Source: Aquificaceae bacterium
GTDB taxonomy: Bacteria; Aquificota; Aquificia; Aquificales; Aquificaceae
Reading direction: 5' to 3'
DNA length: 64,000 nucleotides
Assembly: GCA_037925075.1 (NCBI GenBank)
Contig: JAXSNR010000001.1
Location: 214,085-278,084, forward strand
Shown piece after piece: positions 54,164 to 64,000 of the stretch. Each line of letters opens with the position of its first letter. Position 1 is the first letter of the stretch. A program made the translations under genes and the position numbers. The notes beneath the pieces are model-generated. The model worked only from the letters and a program-made list of their open reading frames with translations. It did not search any database and was not told where the DNA came from.

Positions 54164-54393
54164 AGCTTTTGTATTTTTCCATAATCAGAGAAAGGCTAAA
54201 AAAAGACAGCGAGGACATGGAGTTTGCTGGCAAGGTTTCTGAGCTTCGCAGTCTTTTGATAGAAAGGTATCCGGAGCTTGAGGGGGTCTTTAAGGCTTCA
54301 AGGTTTGCGGTCAATTACGAGTATGTGGATGAGGACTACGAGCTAACTGGGAGAGAGGTGGTAGCGGTAATACCTCCGGTGAGCGGTGGATAA
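54160..54393 (+). CDS. moaD: MoaD/ThiS sulfur carrier (molybdopterin synthase small subunit-like)
   Basis: KLLYFS..RE, AVNYEYV, C-terminal IPPVSGG. Confidence 0.88.
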   Translation: MKLLYFSIIRERLKKDSEDMEFAGKVSELRSLLIERYPELEGVFKASRFAVNYEYVDEDYELTGREVVAVIPPVSGG

Positions 54394-55324
54394 GAGGGCT
54401 TTAATCCTTAGGCTTTCTTCTCTTGGTGATGTGGTGCTAACTTCCTGTCTTTTGGACCCTCTTATTGAGCTTGGCTATAGCCCTTACCTTTTGACCTTTG
54501 AACCCTATGGTGAAATCTTCTTAGAAGACCCACGCCTTAAAGTTTTTCAGATAAAAAAGGAGGAGCTTTTTAGGAAACAAACCCTTGAAAGGTTAAAAGG
54601 CTTTGACCTTTACCTTGATATGCACAAGAACCTAAGGACGCTTTTACTGAGGTTAAAGCTTGGTGGAAGGTGGAAGAGCTACAACAAACAGTCCATCAGA
54701 CGCAGGCTTTCCATATACTTCAAAAGCCTTAGAAAACCCTACAGTGTGGTAAGGGCATACCTTGAAAGCATAGGCTACAAGGAGGGAAGACCCAAGATAT
54801 TGCTTTCTGAAGAGAGGCTAAAGCTTTGGAAACAAAGGCTTGGAAGTTATGTATGCATAGCACCGGGAGCAAGGTACGAAAAGAAGAGATATCCTTACTT
54901 TGACAAACTCACAGAACTTTTTCTCAAAGAGGAATATCAAGTGGTTCTTGTGGGAGACAAAAGGGACAGGGAGCTTACAAGAAACTGGCAAGGTATTAAT
55001 CTGTGTGGGGAGCTTTCCCTTTTGGATGTGGGTGCGGTCATAAAAGGTGCTTTGATCTTTTTGGGAAACGACTCTGGCTTACTTCACATATCAAGGGCTG
55101 TAGGCACAAAGGCCATTCAAATTTACGGCGGAACGCATCCCACCCTTGGCTTTGCCCTTGAACCTGATGAAGGCCTTTATGTGCTTAAAAACCTCTACTG
55201 CCAGCCCTGTAGCCTGCATGGAAAAGGCAAGTGCAGGCTTGGAGACTATCCATATCCTTGCCTTGATATAGCTCCGGAAGAGATATTTAAATTGGCTCTT
55301 GGCCTTTTAAGGGAAAGAAGCTAA
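54386..55324 (+). CDS. Glycosyltransferase family 9 (LPS heptosyltransferase-like)
   Basis: RLSSLGDVVLT, IAPGA...KR, GNDSGLLH...A.GT, CQPC. Confidence 0.88.
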   Translation: MDKRALILRLSSLGDVVLTSCLLDPLIELGYSPYLLTFEPYGEIFLEDPRLKVFQIKKEELFRKQTLERLKGFDLYLDMHKNLRTLLLRLKLGGRWKSYNKQSIRRRLSIYFKSLRKPYSVVRAYLESIGYKEGRPKILLSEERLKLWKQRLGSYVCIAPGARYEKKRYPYFDKLTELFLKEEYQVVLVGDKRDRELTRNWQGINLCGELSLLDVGAVIKGALIFLGNDSGLLHISRAVGTKAIQIYGGTHPTLGFALEPDEGLYVLKNLYCQPCSLHGKGKCRLGDYPYPCLDIAPEEIFKLALGLLRERS

Positions 55325-55377
55325 AAGGTTAAGGCTAAAAGGGAGTTTATGGTATATTTACATGTTGGAGGGCTAAA

Positions 55378-58300
55378 GTGTCCTCTTTGGATTTGACCTT
55401 TATAACAAACGAACCGGGGCAAACACTTAGGGATAGGTTTAACCAACTAATAAAGGACTGTAGGTTTTTTGACTGTATTGTCGGTTATTTTAATGTAAGC
55501 GGATTCCATGCCATTTACAAATCCTTGGAGAAGGCTGAGAGAATAAGAATCCTAATAGGAATTGGAACCACTCCAAGCACTTACCACCTAATAAAAACCG
55601 CAGAAACACACCCTTCTCATTATGAGGCAAAACAGAAGGTTGAAGAGATGATAGAAAATGAAATGGCTGAAAGCGAAGACGATCAAAATGTTGAAGAAGC
55701 AATCAGAAAGTTTATTGAGTGGATAAAAAACGGAAAACTACAGATAAGAGCATATCCATCCCAAAAACTTCATGCAAAGTTGTACATTATAACCTTTAGA
55801 GAAGGTGATCGTGATAAGGGAAGAGTAATAACAGGCTCAAGCAATTTTACTCAGTCTGGGCTTATAGACAATCTTGAATTTAATGTTGAACTAAAAAATA
55901 CATCGGACTATGAATACGCAAAGAATAAATTTGAGGCGTTGTGGAAAGAATCCGTTGAAGTCTCCGAAGCCATTGTCCAGATCTTAACACAAAAGACTTG
56001 GCTAAAGGATGATATCACACCTTACGAGCTTTATCTTAAATTCTTGTATGAATATTTCAAGGACGAGCTAAATATAACAGATGAAGTCTTTACGGAGTAT
56101 ATTCCGGAAAATTTCAAAGAGCTTGAATACCAAAAACAGGCGGTTTTGAACGCCAAAAGAATCCTTGAAGAGTACGGTGGAGTTTTTATCTCCGATGTGG
56201 TAGGACTTGGTAAAACCTACATGGGTGCAATGCTTGCAAACCAACTTGATGGTAGAACGCTTGTTATAGCACCACCCGCACTTATTGATAAAAGAAACCC
56301 CGGCTCATGGAGAAATGTATTTTCTGATTTTAACATTCCTGCGGAGTTTGTATCAATCGGCAAGCTTGACGAAGCTAAAGAGGATTCAAAGAAATATAAA
56401 AACATCATCATAGATGAATCACATCGTTTTAGAACAGAGACCACCATTAGCTACGAGGATTTATCTGAAATCTGTCGTGGTAAAAGAGTTATACTCGTAT
56501 CCGCAACTCCCTACAACAATTCACCAATGGATATTCTTGCCCAAATTAAACTTTTCCAGAACGCCAAAAAAAGCACCATACCCGGAATTGTAAATCTTGA
56601 AGATTTTTTTAAAAAACTTGATAAGCGATTAAAGGATATTGACCGCCAGAAGGATTATGAGGAATACCTAAGAATAACAAGGGAGAACGCAAAGGAGATA
56701 AGGGAAAAGGTTTTAAAGCATATAATGATTAGAAGAACAAGAAGCGAAATTCAAAAGTATTTTGCAAAAGACTTGGAGAAAAACAATATTAGATTTCCAG
56801 AAGTAGAAGACCCAAAGCCTATTTATTATCAGTTAAACTCCCATGAAGATAAGGTTTTTATGGAAACTGTAAGGCTAATAACACAAGAACTAAAATATGC
56901 CCGTTATATGCCACTACTGTATTTAAAGAAACCCATAAAACCTTTGGAAGAACAAGCCCAGAAAAATATGGGCGGTTTTATGAAGGTGCTTCTTGTAAAG
57001 CGACTTGAAAGTAGCTTTTATGCATTTAGAAATACCATTGACAGGTTTATTGGTTATTATGAGAAGTTTCTTAGTGAATACGAAAAAGGAAACGTATATA
57101 TAAGCAAAAAGTACATAAATAAAATATTTGAACTCTTGGAAGAAGGGGATGACGAAAAAATTCAAGAGCTTATAGATGAAGGAAAAGCGGAAAGATACAA
57201 CAGCGAAGACTTTAAACCTTATTTTGAAAAAGACCTAAAAAAGGACCTTGAAACTTTAAGAAAAATAAAATCCATGTGGGACTCTATAGAAAGAGACCCA
57301 AAGGTTGAAACTTTACTGGAAAGTTTAGAAAACCACCCCGTTTTAAAGGATAAAAAAATCATCATCTTTACAGAATCCAAGGAAACTGCGGAATATTTAA
57401 CTGAGAAAATAAACGAAAGATACGGACATGAGATAGCCTTGTTATTTCATAGTGGCTCTCCAGAAGGAGTTCGTGAGAAAATTATAGAAAACTTTGACGC
57501 AAGGGCAAGAAATAAAAAGGATGATTATAGAATCCTTATAACAACCGATATACTTTCCGAAGGCGTTAACCTTCATAGGTCAAACATTGTTATAAACTAT
57601 GATATACCATGGAATCCAACAAAATTAATGCAAAGAGTAGGGAGAATTAACCGTATAGATACAAAATTTGATAAGATATACGTGTTTAACTTTTTCCCAA
57701 CAGAACAGGCGGACTCTGAAATTGAACTTACAAAAATTGCTCGCTCAAAAATAGAAGCCTTTTTGACATTGCTCGGTGGTGATTCTTCAATCTTGATGGA
57801 AGGAGAACCAGTAGATTCTCATGAACTATTTGACAAACTACTCTCAAAGAAAACCATAACAGAAGACGAAGAAGAAGAAAGTGAGCTAAAGTATTTGAAG
57901 ATTATCAAAGATATACGCGATAACAATCCTGAGCTTTTTGAAAAAATAAAAAGGCTTCCTAAAAAGGCACGTTCCGCAAAGGCATTTGATGAATCATTAA
58001 ATGAAGTTGCACAGCCAAACTCCTTAATTACCTTTTTCAGACAAGGTAAATTGATGAAATTTTTCCTATCAACAAAGGATAAAACGTTTGAACTTGATTT
58101 TCTGACAACTGCAAAAATTCTGGAAAGCTCCATAAATGAAAAAAGAGAAAAAATTCCTGTTGAAGATTACTACCATCTACTTGATAAAAATAAATCCGCT
58201 TTCTATGAAACTACCACCGAAGAAGGAATTATTGAAAGTACAAAAAGAGGTGGTTCTGATAGTAGGCAAAAATTGTTGAAAATTCTACTTGCAGTTCAAA

Positions 58301-58575
58301 ATAACAGCAAGCAATTAACAGAAGAGCAAGAAGAATACCTAAAGAATGTTATAGATAGGCTTGATGTACTTCCAAAAAAGACCATTCAAGGAGTTCTAAA
58401 AGAGTTGGAAAAACTCGGAAAAGAGATACAGAATCCACTAAAAGTAATAACAGTCTTGCAAAGTAAAATATCACAAGCATTTCTTAGAGAGCATTATGCG
58501 GAGAATTCTACCAAAAAGGAAGAAAAAAGAGAAGTTATTTTATCACTTTATTTGGTAGATAAGGAAAATGAATAA
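55378..58575 (+). CDS. PLD-nuclease domain + SNF2/SF2 helicase
   Basis: LHAKLYI...GSSNFT (PLD-like), SDVVGLGKT, IIDESH, SATP, ILSEGVNL, QRVGRINR; GTG start behind SD GGAGG. Confidence 0.88.
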   Translation: MSSLDLTFITNEPGQTLRDRFNQLIKDCRFFDCIVGYFNVSGFHAIYKSLEKAERIRILIGIGTTPSTYHLIKTAETHPSHYEAKQKVEEMIENEMAESEDDQNVEEAIRKFIEWIKNGKLQIRAYPSQKLHAKLYIITFREGDRDKGRVITGSSNFTQSGLIDNLEFNVELKNTSDYEYAKNKFEALWKESVEVSEAIVQILTQKTWLKDDITPYELYLKFLYEYFKDELNITDEVFTEYIPENFKELEYQKQAVLNAKRILEEYGGVFISDVVGLGKTYMGAMLANQLDGRTLVIAPPALIDKRNPGSWRNVFSDFNIPAEFVSIGKLDEAKEDSKKYKNIIIDESHRFRTETTISYEDLSEICRGKRVILVSATPYNNSPMDILAQIKLFQNAKKSTIPGIVNLEDFFKKLDKRLKDIDRQKDYEEYLRITRENAKEIREKVLKHIMIRRTRSEIQKYFAKDLEKNNIRFPEVEDPKPIYYQLNSHEDKVFMETVRLITQELKYARYMPLLYLKKPIKPLEEQAQKNMGGFMKVLLVKRLESSFYAFRNTIDRFIGYYEKFLSEYEKGNVYISKKYINKIFELLEEGDDEKIQELIDEGKAERYNSEDFKPYFEKDLKKDLETLRKIKSMWDSIERDPKVETLLESLENHPVLKDKKIIIFTESKETAEYLTEKINERYGHEIALLFHSGSPEGVREKIIENFDARARNKKDDYRILITTDILSEGVNLHRSNIVINYDIPWNPTKLMQRVGRINRIDTKFDKIYVFNFFPTEQADSEIELTKIARSKIEAFLTLLGGDSSILMEGEPVDSHELFDKLLSKKTITEDEEEESELKYLKIIKDIRDNNPELFEKIKRLPKKARSAKAFDESLNEVAQPNSLITFFRQGKLMKFFLSTKDKTFELDFLTTAKILESSINEKREKIPVEDYYHLLDKNKSAFYETTTEEGIIESTKRGGSDSRQKLLKILLAVQNNSKQLTEEQEEYLKNVIDRLDVLPKKTIQGVLKELEKLGKEIQNPLKVITVLQSKISQAFLREHYAENSTKKEEKREVILSLYLVDKENE

Positions 58576-58596
58576 ATTTTGAAGGAGGTGGTAGGC

Positions 58597-61500
58597 ATGG
58601 AAAGGGAACAGGCTAAAAACTTAGTAATAGAAACCTTTGAAAATCCTTTTGATAAAGGTAAATTTAAAAAGTTTCTTAAAAATCTCTTAAAGTCCTTTGA
58701 TGAGACTAAAACATTTATCTATCAAGGCAATTACATTCTTGATGCCTTTGAGCCTTATATAAGTTCATTAGAAAGAATTGGTAAATATACATACGATGAC
58801 AAAGAAATTGACTTGTTAATTGTGCATTTGAAAAAAGAAACATCACTTGGACGAGCAAGAACAATGCAAAGGAATTTCATTGCTTGGTATCTGAAAGGTT
58901 CAAGAGGAGGGAAATTAAAAGATGCAGCCCTTGTTGCCTTTGTCTCTCCTGATTCCGAAGATTGGCGTTTTTCTCTTGTAAAAATGGAATATCGCTTTAA
59001 AGAAACACCAGAAGGCAAGATTAAAGTCCAAGAAGAATTTACTCCCGCAAGAAGATGGTCCTTTTTAGTTGGCAAAAATGAAAAAAGCCATACCGCTCAA
59101 TCAAGGTTTATTGAAATACTTGAAAAAGATAAGAAACCAATCCTTGAAGATTTAGAAGAAGCGTTTAATGTTGAAGTTGTTACAAAAGAGTTTTTTGAAA
59201 AATACAGAGACCTTTTTGTCAGAACTAAACTTGAACTGGATAAAATTTTGCATAATAGCCCAGTAGTAAAAGAAGAATTTACAAGTAAAAACATAAATAC
59301 TGTTGATTTTGCAAAGAAACTATTGGGTCAGATTGTATTTCTCTATTTCCTGCAAAAGAAAGGTTGGTTTGGAGTGGAAAGAGGAAAACCCTGGGGAACA
59401 GGTCCAAAGGATTTTATTAGAAGACTATTTAATAAGGAATTTGGTGAATACCAAAACTTTTACAATGATATCCTTGAACCGCTCTTTTATGAAGCTTTAA
59501 GAACCGATAGGAGTTCAGATGACCATTACTATAGCAGGTTTGATTGCAAAATACCCTTTTTAAATGGTGGATTATTTGACCCTATAAACGGTTTTGATTG
59601 GGTAAATGTGGATATTAATCTGCCCAATGAACTCTTTTCTAACACTAACAAAACCAAAGAGGGTGATATAGGGGATGGTATTCTTGATGTGTTTGATAGA
59701 TATAACTTTACCGTAAATGAAGAGGAGCCGCTGGAAAAAGAGGTTGCCCTTGACCCGGAACTTCTTGGAAAGATTTATGAAAAATTAAATGCTATAAGAA
59801 CTGATAACTTTGATGAGTATGTAAGGGTCTTAGCATCAGGGAAAAAGGGTGAAGAAACAAAGTTTAACAAAGAATATGGAGTTTATTACACACCAAGAGA
59901 AATTGTCCATTATATGTGCCAAGAGAGTTTAATAAATTATCTTGAAACAGAATTAAACGAAAAAGTTTCAAGAGAAGATTTAGAAAGGTTTTTCAAATAT
60001 GCGGATTCTCAAGAAATAGAAAAGATGGCTATTGAGAAAGCGGAGAAAATTGAACGTGGTGAGCAGAAGGCAACAAAATACGAAAGTCAGATACCAGAAA
60101 GTATAAGGCAAAATGCAAAAGAAATAGACAAACTCCTTGCTGATGTAAAGGTATGCGACCCAGCAGTTGGTTCTGGTGCTTTTCCAGTAGGAATGCTTCA
60201 CGAAATTGTGAAGTTAAGACAACTTCTTTCTATATACACAAAAGAGGATACAAAATCTTATGACTTAAAACGCCACTGTATAGAAAACTCCCTTTATGGA
60301 GTTGATATTGACCAGGGTGCGGTTGAAATATGTAAATTAAGATTTTGGCTATCCATGATTGTAGATGAAGAGGATTTTTACAATATAAAACCACTGCCAA
60401 ACCTTGATTATAAGGTTGTTTGTGGAGATTCGCTTTTGGGGGTTCAAGTAGATTTGTTTAACCAGAATGCATTTAAGAAACTTGAAGAACTAAAAACAAA
60501 GTATTTCAATGAAACAAATCCTTTAAGGAAACAAGAATTAAAAAAAGAAATTGATAAATTAATTATAGAGATATCAAATGGATATAAAGAGTTTGATTTC
60601 AAAGTTTACTTCTCAGAGGTGTTTCATCAGAAAGGCGGATTTGATATTGTGATTGGAAATCCGCCGTATATTTCTACAAAAGGAGTAACACAGCAACAAA
60701 AACAACAACTTATGAAGCATTTTGGTTTTTCTGATGACACTTACAATCACTTTTATTTTAAAGGAATGCAAATACTCAAAGAAAATGGAATTCTTGCTTA
60801 TATATCTTCTAAAACTTTCTGGACTATTCAAACCAAAAAGAACCTACGAGAATTATTATTGCAAAACAAAATACTTCAACTATTTGATACCGCCAATCCT
60901 TTTGAATCAGCTATGGTGGATACTTGTATAACTATTGTTCAAAAACAAAAACCTAATAAAGACCATCAAATTATTTTCTTGGATGGCAAAAAAAGTATAA
61001 CTCAACCAGAAAGATATACCGTTTTACAACGAGTATTCGCCACTGCACCCAATCAAGTATTTTTTATTCCTACTCCAAGAAATATGAAAATTTATGAACG
61101 CTACGGGAAAATCGTTAATGAATTATTAAATCAATGGTGGGATTTAATATCTACAAGCAAAAACATTGAAAAGAATAAACACAAACTGGAAGAATATCGT
61201 AAGAGTTTAAAACCAGGTGATATTACTTTACTGGGACTTATTACAGAAGGGGGACAAGGTTTAGCAACTGGAAATAATGGCAAATACATTGGTGTGCTGG
61301 AAGGCACAAAATGGGCAGATAAAGTAAGAAAAGAAAGACCAGAAAAATTACTTTTAGCCACAGAGTTTTGTAAAAAAATGAATATAAAGAACAAACAGGA
61401 CGCACAAGCATTTTTAGATAAGCTTACAGAAAAGGAAATCCGAAAACTCTTTGACGATTTAAAAGAAAAATATGGCAGAGATATATTTGGACAGGGCTGG

Positions 61501-61968
61501 CTTTATAGAATTGTAAGTCAAGATGAGATTGCAGATGTAGATAAACTTACAGAAGATGAAAAACTCAATGGCATTCTGGGAGAAAAAACTTTTGTGCCTT
61601 ATGACAAAGGAGATAAAGAAGGCAACCGCTGGTATGCACCAACGCCCTATTATATTGATTGGAGTAGGGAGAATGTGAAAATGTTACAAACTGATCCAAA
61701 AGCAAGATGGCAAGGCTATCAATTCTATTTCAGGGAGGGGTTTTGCTGGATATTTACTTTAAATGAATTTAGTGAATATCAAAAAGCTAGAATTAAAGAA
61801 CCAGGAATTCACGATGTTAATGCAATGAGCTTATTTCCAAACTTAAATTATGTCAGTTCAAAATACTTAATTTGTCTTCTAAATTCTTACTTTCTTTTTT
61901 ATTACAAGAGAACTTTATTAATTCAACTTCAGGATTTCAAATCAACGATGCTCGCCAACTTCCCATAA
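58597..61968 (+). CDS. Type IIG/Eco57I-like N6-adenine DNA methyltransferase, frameshifted near the 3' end
   Basis: PFLNGGLF, LGKIYE, GVYYTP, motif I VCDPAVGSGAF, YGVDID, motif IV IGNPPY; ATG 58597 behind SD GGAGG. Confidence 0.88.
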   Translation: MEREQAKNLVIETFENPFDKGKFKKFLKNLLKSFDETKTFIYQGNYILDAFEPYISSLERIGKYTYDDKEIDLLIVHLKKETSLGRARTMQRNFIAWYLKGSRGGKLKDAALVAFVSPDSEDWRFSLVKMEYRFKETPEGKIKVQEEFTPARRWSFLVGKNEKSHTAQSRFIEILEKDKKPILEDLEEAFNVEVVTKEFFEKYRDLFVRTKLELDKILHNSPVVKEEFTSKNINTVDFAKKLLGQIVFLYFLQKKGWFGVERGKPWGTGPKDFIRRLFNKEFGEYQNFYNDILEPLFYEALRTDRSSDDHYYSRFDCKIPFLNGGLFDPINGFDWVNVDINLPNELFSNTNKTKEGDIGDGILDVFDRYNFTVNEEEPLEKEVALDPELLGKIYEKLNAIRTDNFDEYVRVLASGKKGEETKFNKEYGVYYTPREIVHYMCQESLINYLETELNEKVSREDLERFFKYADSQEIEKMAIEKAEKIERGEQKATKYESQIPESIRQNAKEIDKLLADVKVCDPAVGSGAFPVGMLHEIVKLRQLLSIYTKEDTKSYDLKRHCIENSLYGVDIDQGAVEICKLRFWLSMIVDEEDFYNIKPLPNLDYKVVCGDSLLGVQVDLFNQNAFKKLEELKTKYFNETNPLRKQELKKEIDKLIIEISNGYKEFDFKVYFSEVFHQKGGFDIVIGNPPYISTKGVTQQQKQQLMKHFGFSDDTYNHFYFKGMQILKENGILAYISSKTFWTIQTKKNLRELLLQNKILQLFDTANPFESAMVDTCITIVQKQKPNKDHQIIFLDGKKSITQPERYTVLQRVFATAPNQVFFIPTPRNMKIYERYGKIVNELLNQWWDLISTSKNIEKNKHKLEEYRKSLKPGDITLLGLITEGGQGLATGNNGKYIGVLEGTKWADKVRKERPEKLLLATEFCKKMNIKNKQDAQAFLDKLTEKEIRKLFDDLKEKYGRDIFGQGWLYRIVSQDEIADVDKLTEDEKLNGILGEKTFVPYDKGDKEGNRWYAPTPYYIDWSRENVKMLQTDPKARWQGYQFYFREGFCWIFTLNEFSEYQKARIKEPGIHDVNAMSLFPNLNYVSSKYLICLLNSYFLFYYKRTLLIQLQDFKSTMLANFP

Positions 61969-62144
61969 TCATTCCCACACCTGAACAATTAAAGCAATTT
62001 GAAGCTATATTTGACAGGGCATACACAATCCAAAAGCAAAAATTTGAAGGTAAGATAAGTGAAGAAGAAGCAGAAGAAAAACTTGCCGAAGTCCAAAAAG
62101 AATTGGATGAAATGGTGGAAGGAATGTATATGGAGGGAAATTAA
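61872..62144 (+). pseudogene. Out-of-frame C-terminal tail of the methyltransferase (end of the specificity domain)
   Basis: FINSTSGFQINDARQLPIIIP...LDEMVEGMY lies in the -1 frame and continues the LLNSY motif. One extra base near 61895-61912 would give a single 1182-aa ORF. Confidence 0.8.
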
Positions 62145-62164
62145 TATGAAAAAAGTAAAAATTT

Positions 62165-62668
62165 ATGTTTAGCAAACTCATTCAAATAATTTTAGTTGCT
62201 ACATCGCTTTCACCAGTTTTGCTTACCTTCTGGTTTAAACTATTTAGTAAGTCTTGTGATTTAAAAGAAGGTATATTTTATTTAATATCAGCAATTATTT
62301 TGATGGTCATTTTAAAACTCATTATTGACCTTGCAAAGAAAAAATTAGAAGTAATTCCTATATCCATAAAAGAAATATCTAACGCAGATAATGAAAGTGT
62401 TATTTTTATTTTTACCTACCTTATACCATTGTTAGGAATAGATTTTAATATGATGTTGTTCTTATTAGTATTATTTTTTATTATAGTATTCACTACGAAT
62501 ATATACCATTTTAATCCATTATTAGGCTTATTAGGGTATCATCAATATGAAGTAAAATTAGAAGATGGTCCTACTTTTATTTTGATTACCAGAAAGACAC
62601 TTATAAACAGCAAACAAATAAAAAGTGTAGTTCAATTAACTAATTATATATTATTAGAAAAGGAGTGA
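62165..62668 (+). CDS. kwaA: Kiwa anti-phage membrane protein KwaA-like
   Basis: About 4 TMs, TSLSPV, IFTYLIPL, HFNPLLGLLGY..YEV...LITRK; directly upstream of a KwaB-like gene. Confidence 0.7.
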   Translation: MFSKLIQIILVATSLSPVLLTFWFKLFSKSCDLKEGIFYLISAIILMVILKLIIDLAKKKLEVIPISIKEISNADNESVIFIFTYLIPLLGIDFNMMLFLLVLFFIIVFTTNIYHFNPLLGLLGYHQYEVKLEDGPTFILITRKTLINSKQIKSVVQLTNYILLEKE

Positions 62669-62671
62669 CGT

Positions 62672-63517
62672 ATGAATATCTACGCAATTTTAAGAAATGA
62701 TAACTCTCTTAAAAGAATAAGTTTAACTCAAGAGCTACAAGAAGAGTTGGATAGCTATATAAATTCATCCATTCAACATTTTGAGGGATTATCTCCAATT
62801 AAATTCTCCGGTGAATATAAACCTGATGAAGATCAAATTTTATTTATTGAAAATTTTAAAAATCCTTACAGTGAGTTTGTCCCTACAAGTACAGAAATTT
62901 TAGAAAAGAGTGAAATTGATTATATAAAAACTATTGTCTTTGTTGATTCAGATAAAATAGCATATCAATGTTTTGATAGTAGAAAAATAATTAAACCTAA
63001 TAAGTGGTTTCTAATATACTCAAGAAAAACCTTTTCCAAAATTAACGAACCAGCATTAATAATTGATGCTAAAATTGATGCACTTTATTTTAAGGAAGAA
63101 AAGAAGTTATTATTTCTTTCATATCACAATGCTTCAAAAATATTTGATTTAAGTGAGTATTATAGAGAAGCAACTGATAGCGAAATTAATCATTTCCTTA
63201 ATAACAATCTCATTCAAAAGGATACATCATTTAACACAAATTTATTTAACTCACGAATGCGAAAAAAATTACATCTAATAATTAAAAATAATGTATTAGA
63301 AAAAGTTGAAAGAAATTTTAGTGAGGTTGTAAAATATGCAGAAAAATTTAAATTAGAACAAATGTTTGATAAAATAAATCAAAAAATTATTTTTCCTTCT
63401 GAGAAGAAAGATTTAGAAAAATTAATTAAGTTCTTGAACGAGGATCTTTTCGAATCACCAATCACGGGAAACAAGTATGAAATTAATTCGAAACATACAG
63501 TTTCCGAGCATACTTAA
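62672..63517 (+). CDS. kwaB: Kiwa anti-phage protein KwaB-like (DUF4868-like)
   Basis: 281 aa soluble protein, F.GEYKPD.DQ...I..F, Q.F..RK.I, I.FP.EKK....LIKFLNED.FES.ITG..Y..NSK; paired with the KwaA-like gene. Confidence 0.7.
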   Translation: MNIYAILRNDNSLKRISLTQELQEELDSYINSSIQHFEGLSPIKFSGEYKPDEDQILFIENFKNPYSEFVPTSTEILEKSEIDYIKTIVFVDSDKIAYQCFDSRKIIKPNKWFLIYSRKTFSKINEPALIIDAKIDALYFKEEKKLLFLSYHNASKIFDLSEYYREATDSEINHFLNNNLIQKDTSFNTNLFNSRMRKKLHLIIKNNVLEKVERNFSEVVKYAEKFKLEQMFDKINQKIIFPSEKKDLEKLIKFLNEDLFESPITGNKYEINSKHTVSEHT

Positions 63518-63539
63518 AGATTAAAAATAAAACCCGTAG

Positions 63540-64000
63540 CTACAGAATTTAGCTTGCGAAATATTACATAACCTAAAATCGGTTAGAAATTTTATTATGG
63601 AAGTTATAAACAAAGAAAAACTTTTGGAGCTTGGTGAAAGGTAGATTGAGTAAAAAACTCAGAGAATGCGAAATCTTTTAAAGATTGCAGAACCTGATGA
63701 AGCTTTACACCGTGAGATTATGTTATCCTTAGGTTATCCTAAAAACAAAGTTCAATTTTTGGAGCTTGCCTTGATACTTCCCTACAAAGAAATAAAAAAT
63801 CTAAAAGAAAGGCAAACAATAGAAAAAGCACTCCTTTATCGTGCTGGCTTTTGCGAATCAAAGGAGGGATTACCCAATAGCTTTGACTTTTCTTTGAAAA
63901 TGGATAGGTCAGTTTGGGAACTTAAAGGTATAAGACCAGCCAACCATCCTGATAAGAGAATTAAAGGGATTTCTCATTTATTAGCTCAGACAGTATCTGA
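63540..64000 (+). pseudogene. Decayed DUF2851-like gene (runs off the window)
   Basis: Frame reads ...MEVINKEKLLELGER*IE*KTQRMRNLL...EALHREIMLSLGYPKNKVQFLELA...WELKGIRPANHPDKRIKG, with in-frame stops at 63642 and 63651. Confidence 0.6.

Follow-up and report, generated by a model that had tools for sequence, protein, structure and literature searches.

A damaged Aquificaceae copy of a conserved PLD-Swi2/Snf2 helicase and methyltransferase gene pair, a likely ATP-dependent restriction-modification-like module

The DNA analysed here, referred to as the window, is a stretch of 64,000 nucleotides (nt) from an Aquificaceae bacterium (assembly GCA_037925075.1, contig JAXSNR010000001.1, positions 214,085 to 278,084). 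Towards its end it carries two adjacent plus-strand genes. The first encodes a phospholipase D (PLD) domain fused to a Swi2/Snf2-type ATPase, called the helicase below, and the second an N6-adenine methyltransferase (MTase). On balance, we favour the view that the locus was gained by horizontal transfer, has since been damaged by mutation and represents one copy of a widespread two-subunit, ATP-dependent restriction-modification-like module. The following features make up the pair.

55378 to 58575, plus strand: PLD(HKD)-Swi2/Snf2 ATPase fusion gene, intact, 1065 amino acids (aa) (Pfam, PADLOC, AlphaFold2 model and Foldseek)
55771 to 55845, plus strand: PLD catalytic motif H132-x-K134 ... G153-S-S-N156 (LHAKLYII...GSSNFT; alignments)
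58597 to 61968, plus strand: methyltransferase gene, upstream frame, 1123 aa from its ATG (Shine-Dalgarno sequence, Pfam, PADLOC, PDB profile matches)
58597 to 59091, plus strand: family-specific N-terminal module of the methyltransferase (N-module), 165 aa, without a catalytic (D/E)xK (AlphaFold2, Pfam, homologue search)
60157 to 60669, plus strand: MTase catalytic core, from S-adenosylmethionine motif I (DPAVGSGAF) to motif IV (NPPY) (alignment)
61895 to 61900, plus strand: frameshift site, a run of six T (T6) with one base missing at or beside it relative to intact orthologues (three-frame translation against P0122 and P0123)
61901 to 62144, plus strand: rest of the methyltransferase, encoded in the -1 frame (FQINDARQLPIIIPT..., as far as the native C-terminus; three-frame translation)

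The 1065-aa PLD-SNF2 helicase proposed in the initial annotation, which had been made from the sequence alone, is borne out by its open reading frame (ORF), its Pfam domains and its invariant catalytic residues. Pfam places PLDc_2 at residues 33-189 and ResIII, SNF2-rel_dom and Helicase_C at residues 247-760; no function is assigned to the C-terminal region, approximately residues 860-1065. The HKD motif is present in one copy per chain. H132, K134 and G153-S-S-N156, the Walker A motif (G276xGK279T), the DExH box (D346-E347-x-H349) and motif VI (Q752-R753-x-G755-R756) are invariant in two alignments of bacterial and archaeal relatives (23 and 52 sequences), and all of them are retained here. 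A Foldseek search with the AlphaFold2 model (local confidence score, pLDDT, 82.4) matched the Swi2/Snf2 ATPases RapA, Chd1, CSB and Rad54 as well as SauUSI (7CLG) and ZorD, SauUSI being the top restriction-enzyme fold (E = 7e-12). Side by side with these matches, the PHROG family phrog_26785 of unknown function covers the helicase over its full length (E = 2.3e-275); it was probably built from prophage-borne helicase copies. The GenBank phage collection contained only distant relatives of the helicase (<28% identity), and the plasmid and phage collections likewise only distant ones (<36% identity), annotated as 'helicase-related protein'.

Translation of the methyltransferase would start at ATG 58597, located 21 nt past the helicase stop and preceded by an AGGAGG Shine-Dalgarno sequence 8 nt upstream. 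The protein consists, in this order, of the N-module, a helical spacer, a gamma-class N6-adenine MTase and a target recognition domain (TRD). Pfam reports Eco57I (1.3e-34, residues 570-771), N6_Mtase and MmeI_Mtase. Residues D527, P528, A529, S532, G533, A534 and F535 of motif I and N694, P695, P696 and Y697 of motif IV are invariant among 29 homologues, and the order of motif I before motif IV with a C-terminal TRD is that of the gamma class. Some methylases of the family (1273-1455 aa; L004:13838-17665 and proteins P0177, P0210, P0221 and P0226) carry a Y1 transposase domain (PF01797) in frame, which splits their Eco57I matches.

Conservation of the pair was assessed over 65 helicase-anchored loci with at least 1.5 kb of downstream sequence. 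In 63 of them a methylase with the N-module lies downstream of the helicase, in the same orientation. The two genes abut or overlap in 38 loci and are separated by an insert of 0.3-2.3 kb in the other 25 of the 63. As 63 of 65 related loci keep the pair, the association is far beyond chance, and helicase and methylase form a conserved, self-contained unit across phyla. The locus described here belongs to this unnamed pair, with a PLD-Snf2 gene followed by a same-strand methylase carrying the 165-aa N-module. One of the two exceptions, a metagenome-assembled genome (MAG) of Thermodesulfovibrionia, is another decayed copy, in which the helicase is intact and of the methylase nothing but a C-terminal TRD remnant persists (L015:13186-14738). 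Helicase relatives with 52-75% identity occur in Aminicenantes, Nitrospirota, Bacteroidota, Chloroflexota, the candidate phyla radiation (CPR), Thermotogota, Campylobacterota and others, and on the archaeal side in Methanomicrobiales, Nanoarchaeota and Promethearchaeota. Identity was highest for the N-module (63%), followed by the helicase (58.8%) and the catalytic part of the methylase (47.8%); the N-module was the best conserved part in 36 of 36 loci, and its identity tracked that of the helicase (Spearman 0.66). TRDs are exchanged among methylases that are otherwise about 70% identical, as would be expected for specificity swapping.

Two further observations concern individual loci. The only insert between helicase and methylase whose gene calls were inspected (L004:13209-13834) is a toxin-antitoxin-type MNT/HepT pair. 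In Desulfurella acetivorans A63 two gene calls, one of 1001 aa and the other a 231-aa M_Eco57I_C piece, make up the methylase (L001:13188-16931), which may be a further split or frameshifted copy; downstream of it lie a Schlafen/AlbA_2-HATPase_c_4 gene and the DUF2851-like gene.

The N-module occupies the position of the nuclease in Type IIG/IIL enzymes. This position, followed by a spacer with weak MmeI_hel matches, would suit a methylase that is a self-contained Type IIG enzyme, in which case the N-module would be a divergent, unrecognised nuclease and the PLD-Snf2 protein would act as an accessory or as a second effector. Consistent with such an enzyme, the PADLOC model REase_MTase_IIG matches the methyltransferase with E = 1.6e-297, and solitary relatives such as Cj0031 restrict phage. 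In a confident AlphaFold2 model of methylase residues 1-430 (60-sequence alignment, pLDDT 84.6, predicted template-modelling score, pTM, 0.80), the N-module has the order helix, three strands, helix, strand and hairpin, which is compatible with a nuclease-derived fold of the PD-(D/E)XK type. Its invariant residues are mostly arginines (R94, R98, R130 and R159), and D78, D128, E168, K114, K135 and H171 are conserved as well.

Nevertheless, several searches for a nuclease were negative. No conserved (D/E)xK was found in the methylase alignments: D78 is the sole conserved acid on the candidate strand, and the residue two positions further on is an invariant Leu instead of the Lys. A Foldseek search of the model against the PDB returned nothing better than E = 0.02 and a template-modelling (TM) score of 0.17; DrdV, too, gave no fold match (TM score 0.17). 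A Pfam scan at E <= 1 of residues 1-430 from 60 family members detected no nuclease family, only weak DUF7814 (7 members) and MmeI_hel (2 members, in the helical part). PDB sequence searches with phmmer and with a profile yielded nothing before methylase residue ~418, from which point on the profile matched CamA, PglX/BrxX, BseCI, TaqI and DrdV. When homologues of the N-module from bacteria, archaea and CPR are grouped at 50% identity, 773 clusters result. The best 150 matches, found mostly in proteins of ~1000-1340 aa, lie at or within ~10 residues of the N-terminus except for two short fragments; the module is thus all but restricted to the start of methylases of this type, which follow a PLD partner in 63 of the 65 helicase-anchored loci, and a second nuclease would be redundant. 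Sequence and model together indicate a methylase without a recognisable nuclease domain, and we regard the self-contained Type IIG enzyme as improbable. The original statements that the methylase has no clear PD-(D/E)XK motif and that the nuclease lies on the helicase and recognition, via the TRD, on the methylase are in line with these results, the former confirmed by every search and the latter supported by sequence and structure prediction. Classification with PADLOC, including its REBASE-derived Type IIG model, as the initial annotation had proposed, assigns the helicase to the candidate model C3a139 'HKD+Snf2' (E = 1.6e-59) and the methylase to Type IIG, and DefenseFinder would be expected to give 'RM Type IIG' as well. 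We judge the latter label to be a mislabel, a convenience of homology, because the defining same-chain nuclease was looked for and not found.

Two genes do not complete the cassette in this clade. The initial annotation described a two-gene system; a third gene lies after the methylase and is separated from it here by two genes of the Kiwa system.

62165 to 62668, plus strand: kwaA of Kiwa (PADLOC KwaA 3.1e-50, full length)
62672 to 63517, plus strand: kwaB of Kiwa, DUF4868 (PADLOC KwaB 2.1e-58, full length; Pfam KwaB 5.2e-13)
63597 to 64000, plus strand, continuing for ~360 nt past the window (L005:682-1446): short DUF2851-like gene, third of the cassette (Pfam DUF2851)

The DUF2851-like gene matches positions 172-355 of the 375 in the Pfam profile, which is the C-terminal half. 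Ahead of an internal ATG at 63666 it contains two nonsense codons, TAG at 63642-63644 and TAA at 63651-63653, in place of the Trp and Lys/Leu of the intact 256-aa orthologues. A DUF2851-like gene is found downstream of the methylase in this genome, in two others of the same genus (G015 and G017), in Desulfurella and in two MAGs, one from Bacteroidota and one from Aminicenantes. DUF2851 was present in 4 of 31 related genomes, three of which carry a close helicase orthologue, and a fourth genome with such an orthologue breaks off at a contig end. Within the genus the gene is confined to genomes with this helicase clade, apart from a weak match in G003. Most of the wider family lacks the gene, which makes it an accessory specific to this clade, where it closes a three-gene cassette; we assign no predicted role to it. 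The protein had no match in PDB, PHROG or PADLOC, and the literature search returned one unrelated paper.

The neighbouring genes have the two parts that define Kiwa, a KwaA membrane protein and KwaB, although the NCBIfam KwaA match (59.6 bits) is below the 100-bit cut-off. kwaA and kwaB are placed exactly between the stop of the methylase (62144) and the point at which the DUF2851-like gene originally began (63597). The corresponding gap in G015 and G017 is ~56 nt long, empty and without Kiwa. Kiwa is a passenger inserted in the cassette gap. In other genomes this place is taken by other passengers, namely Schlafen-type/HATPase, ImmA/IrrE-type, MNT/HEPN and DUF5131 genes. The GC content of the island is 0.33 compared with ~0.44, and is lowest in the Kiwa stretch (0.27-0.29). 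Flanking repeats or att-like sites around Kiwa were sought and dismissed, as the search gave nothing but short AT-rich matches, none of them convincing and the best an 11-mer at 62074 and 63613. A promoter and terminator scan gave results at or below shuffle expectation.

The methyltransferase carries a lesion of its own. Its upstream frame ends with a stop at 61968; the conserved C-terminal part, FQINDARQLPIIIPT..., resumes in the -1 frame and ends like the C-termini of P0122 and P0123. Intact orthologues are single ORFs of 1185-1198 aa (78% and 77% identity). The N6-MTase of ~1180 aa reported at first is real as far as the unbroken length is concerned, but here the gene is split by a one-base frameshift ~80 codons before its end. 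As the lost tail aligns with the C-terminal DNA-recognition domain of CamA, the frameshift probably inactivates the methyltransferase. A programmed -1 frameshift is dismissed, the T6A heptamer being phased with the -1 and not with the incoming frame and the orthologues being single ORFs. A purpose-built phase-variation tract is dismissed as well, because T6 is one of nine comparable runs in the gene.

The frameshift might still be something other than decay, either a homopolymer assembly error or reversible ON/OFF phase variation, leaving the module functional in part of the population. The shift falls on a T6 run and the helicase gene next to it is wholly intact. If recognition sits on the methyltransferase, its loss would be harmless, and under this condition mod genes commonly phase-vary. 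However, T6 is short for a contingency tract, and the eight other homopolymers of at least six bases in the gene stay in frame; the phasing of T6A moreover leaves no canonical -1 slippery site. The two nonsense codons of the DUF2851-like gene are substitutions and not homopolymer artefacts, which points to real relaxed selection, and real decay of the locus is therefore more likely than an assembly error. We consider an assembly error or reversible switching as the origin of the frameshift rather unlikely. Taking the methylase frameshift and the two nonsense codons together, this copy is most likely inactive.

Within the genus, the cassette is absent from most genomes and occupies three chromosomal sites.

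G015:C1 (L093): BacA/TIM
G006:C16 (L095): beside a CCG/Fer4 protein gene
Window, 54386 to 64000: GT9 heptosyltransferase/Hsp20

Three sites in one genus point to repeated independent acquisition. The complete genome G015 has the order BacA, helicase, intact methylase, DUF2851-like gene and TIM, and both there and in Thermocrinis minervae the cassette sits directly between housekeeping genes. The genome described here contains a second, intact paralogous pair ~200 kb away (contig 1, 65446-72270, minus strand; L092:5447-12271). Its helicase has 1092 aa (35% identity). Its methylase, of 1180 aa (27% identity), carries the N-module as well and has a TaqI_C TRD. This pair adjoins rpoD, and an SLFN-g3 helicase/AbiO-like gene (PADLOC PDC-S41) lies upstream.

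The components of the pair are common building blocks of other systems. A class 1 DISARM, MANTIS (BREX-related type 2) or BREX in reduced or partial form, with its remaining components elsewhere, would account for the secondary matches to the DrmD, DrmMI and PglX models and for the 160.7 bits scored by NCBIfam NF042964, the MtsD-type 'phospholipase D-like anti-phage protein'; MtsD, too, is a PLD-SF2 fusion. These scores are far under the curated cut-offs. The DrmD equivalog NF038317 reached 152 bits against 610, NF042964 was 160.7 against 1100 and covered the helicase part only, and the BREX-1 PglX model gave 121 against 500. In the whole genome (1.6 Mb, 4 contigs, 99.95% complete) there were no matches to DrmB (DUF1998/MZB, PF09369), to the DUF499 AAA+ ATPase (MtsA, PF04465) or to PglZ (PF08665). 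The controls were positive, for DrmB in 8 of 14 genomes and for DUF499 in Thermus and Thermotoga. DUF3780 (MtsB, PF12635) likewise had no match in this genome, its control being silent everywhere. Thus, the absence of drmA/B noted at the outset holds genome-wide by the DUF1998 search with its control. It was also proposed to inspect the downstream sequence for drmA/B just past the window. The next 14 kb rule this out; they contain the DUF2851-like gene, Hsp20, EPSP synthase, GluTR, HisRS and SMC, and are housekeeping in character. As related cassettes lie directly between housekeeping genes, missing partners nearby find no support there either. A partial DISARM, MANTIS or BREX is refuted for this genome, save for highly divergent analogues of DrmA/B or MtsA/B invisible to profiles, and we give this explanation hardly any credence.

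The family is not a local oddity. It is widespread and partly catalogued, albeit piecemeal, as the PADLOC candidate 'HKD+Snf2', as CDD cd09178 and as REBASE-type 'Type IIG', and its members bear generic annotations such as 'helicase-related protein' and 'Eco57I ... domain-containing protein'. The same gene pair is listed in a table of a 2023 NAR paper (PMC9881135). Beyond that table entry, our literature search found neither a name nor an experiment for the pair.

A restriction-modification-like module of two subunits could work as follows. The methylase (subunit B), with its MmeI-like spacer and exchangeable TRD, would read a short DNA sequence and methylate the host copies without having a nuclease of its own. 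The PLD-Swi2/Snf2 protein (subunit A) would be the effector. The N-module may recruit or license subunit A at unmethylated sites, from which it would travel along double-stranded DNA using ATP. Cleavage would occur when two single-HKD PLD domains pair into one active site, as in SauUSI and MANTIS MtsD. The gap before the DUF2851-like gene would accept other defence genes, in this case Kiwa. With target recognition on the methylase, loss of the methylase would leave restriction disarmed without being lethal to the cell, and an intact helicase beside a broken methylase fits such an arrangement. This proposal starts from the domain identities, the intact catalytic motifs, the conserved pairing, the missing partners of other systems and the lesions. 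Defence, coupling through the N-module, translocation and dimeric cleavage are suggested by analogy to Type III, Type ISP, SauUSI and MANTIS, and we hold the individual steps less firmly than the whole. Of the defence system postulated in the initial annotation, the pair as a conserved unit stands, while its role in defence is proposed from these analogies.

A primary function outside defence also has to be considered. The pair might be an epigenetic or DNA-transaction module in which methylation is combined with a Snf2 remodeller, acting in gene regulation, repair or element mobility. Defence by the pair is argued by analogy, phase-variable Type IIG/III methylases act as regulators, and the motor's best structural matches are RapA and chromatin remodellers. 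The invariant PLD nuclease motif and the TRD swapping speak for restriction instead. The same is true of the setting, since the cassette is patchily distributed and horizontally transferred and lies here in an AT-rich island with Kiwa, and across phyla toxin-antitoxin pairs, Schlafen-type genes and other defence passengers are found in or beside it. A module serving primarily outside defence is very unlikely in our view.

Some points weigh against the restriction-modification-like module that we favour. In the literature found, no family member was experimentally tested, and defence, cleavage and coupling are all reasoned by analogy. The helix-three strands-helix-strand order predicted for the N-module resembles the PD-(D/E)XK core, so that a cryptic or unusual nuclease is possible. 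Since the frameshift is in a homopolymer, it could be an assembly error. The model assigns no role to the DUF2851-like gene, which most of the wider family lacks. Moreover, a loader-free version is not a given by analogy, because in MANTIS, of all studied systems the closest, the methylase cannot bind DNA without its AAA+ loader (bioRxiv 10.64898/2026.09.23.753747; PMC12839542).

If the two-subunit module exists as proposed, a large share of the 'Type IIG' calls made by REBASE-derived models, PADLOC and DefenseFinder would belong to a two-protein system driven by ATP, as its subunit for recognition and methylation, and censuses of defence systems would change. MANTIS and BREX would gain a minimal comparison in the form of a PglX-like methylase working without an AAA+ loader, and thermophilic members would be convenient for structural work. 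The copy described here would be a natural example of decay, in which methylase and accessory gene are hit and the nuclease-motor is still intact, and of the insertion of another system, Kiwa, into the module. As a more speculative extension, which we put forward tentatively and regard as less probable than its opposite, the pair could be a distinct, unnamed minimal class of ATP-dependent restriction-modification systems: a Type ISP enzyme split in two and equipped with PLD and Snf2, in which a 165-aa adaptor replaces the nuclease, an AAA+ loader is unneeded and, in one clade, the gap serves as a landing site for defence cassettes (Kiwa; Schlafen-type, toxin-antitoxin, HEPN).

In Type ISP enzymes such as LlaGI and LlaBIII, a nuclease, an SF2 motor, a gamma-class adenine methylase and a TRD cooperate. 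The MTase-TRD part recognises the target, and cleavage follows ATP-driven translocation. Type ISP enzymes are single polypeptides with an Mrr/PD-(D/E)XK nuclease, whereas the module presented here is encoded by two genes, with a stop codon and a Shine-Dalgarno sequence between them, and has a PLD/HKD nuclease and a Swi2/Snf2-like motor. Type III systems (EcoP15I Mod and Res) likewise consist of two genes, the methylase recognising the target and the helicase-nuclease depending on the methylase. Loss of mod abolishes Type III restriction because Res depends on recognition by Mod. In contrast to the pair, Type III has a beta-class Mod with an internal TRD and a Res with a C-terminal PD-(D/E)XK, where the methylase here is of the gamma-class Eco57I/PglX type and the PLD is N-terminal. 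The order of N-domain, helical spacer, gamma MTase and TRD is shared with the Type IIG/IIL enzymes MmeI, Eco57I, DrdV and Cj0031. As in Type IIG, a gamma-class N6-adenine MTase and a TRD are present in one polypeptide, but the endonuclease domain that a Type IIG enzyme carries on that chain appears to be missing from the methylase, as judged from sequence and model.

Regarding the effector, the Type IV enzyme SauUSI (PDB 7CLG) is also a single chain that unites a PLD nuclease with an SF2 ATPase, and formation of its PLD site by dimerisation provides an analogy for the single HKD motif found here. SauUSI, however, brings a TRD of its own and has no methylase partner in its attack on modified DNA. 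Class 1 DISARM (DrmA, DrmB, DrmC, DrmD and DrmMI) likewise uses a Snf2 helicase, an adenine methylase and a PLD protein; in the genome studied here DrmA and DrmB are absent, and the PLD is fused to the helicase. MANTIS, also known as Gao_RL, Gao_29 or the Type-2 DUF499-centred BREX-related system and composed of MtsA-D (bioRxiv 10.64898/2026.09.23.753747; PMC12839542), has in common with the proposed module the logic of methylation-based discrimination between self and non-self, and its MtsD shares the N-terminal HKD and SF2 architecture. It differs in the DUF499 loader MtsA, which was not found in this genome, and the methylase here has the 165-aa N-module of its own family. The initial annotation had placed the pair, as a compact system, outside the classical Types I-IV. 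The unit is indeed conserved, but its distance from known systems was overstated, as it would follow the logic of Type III, Type ISP and MANTIS.

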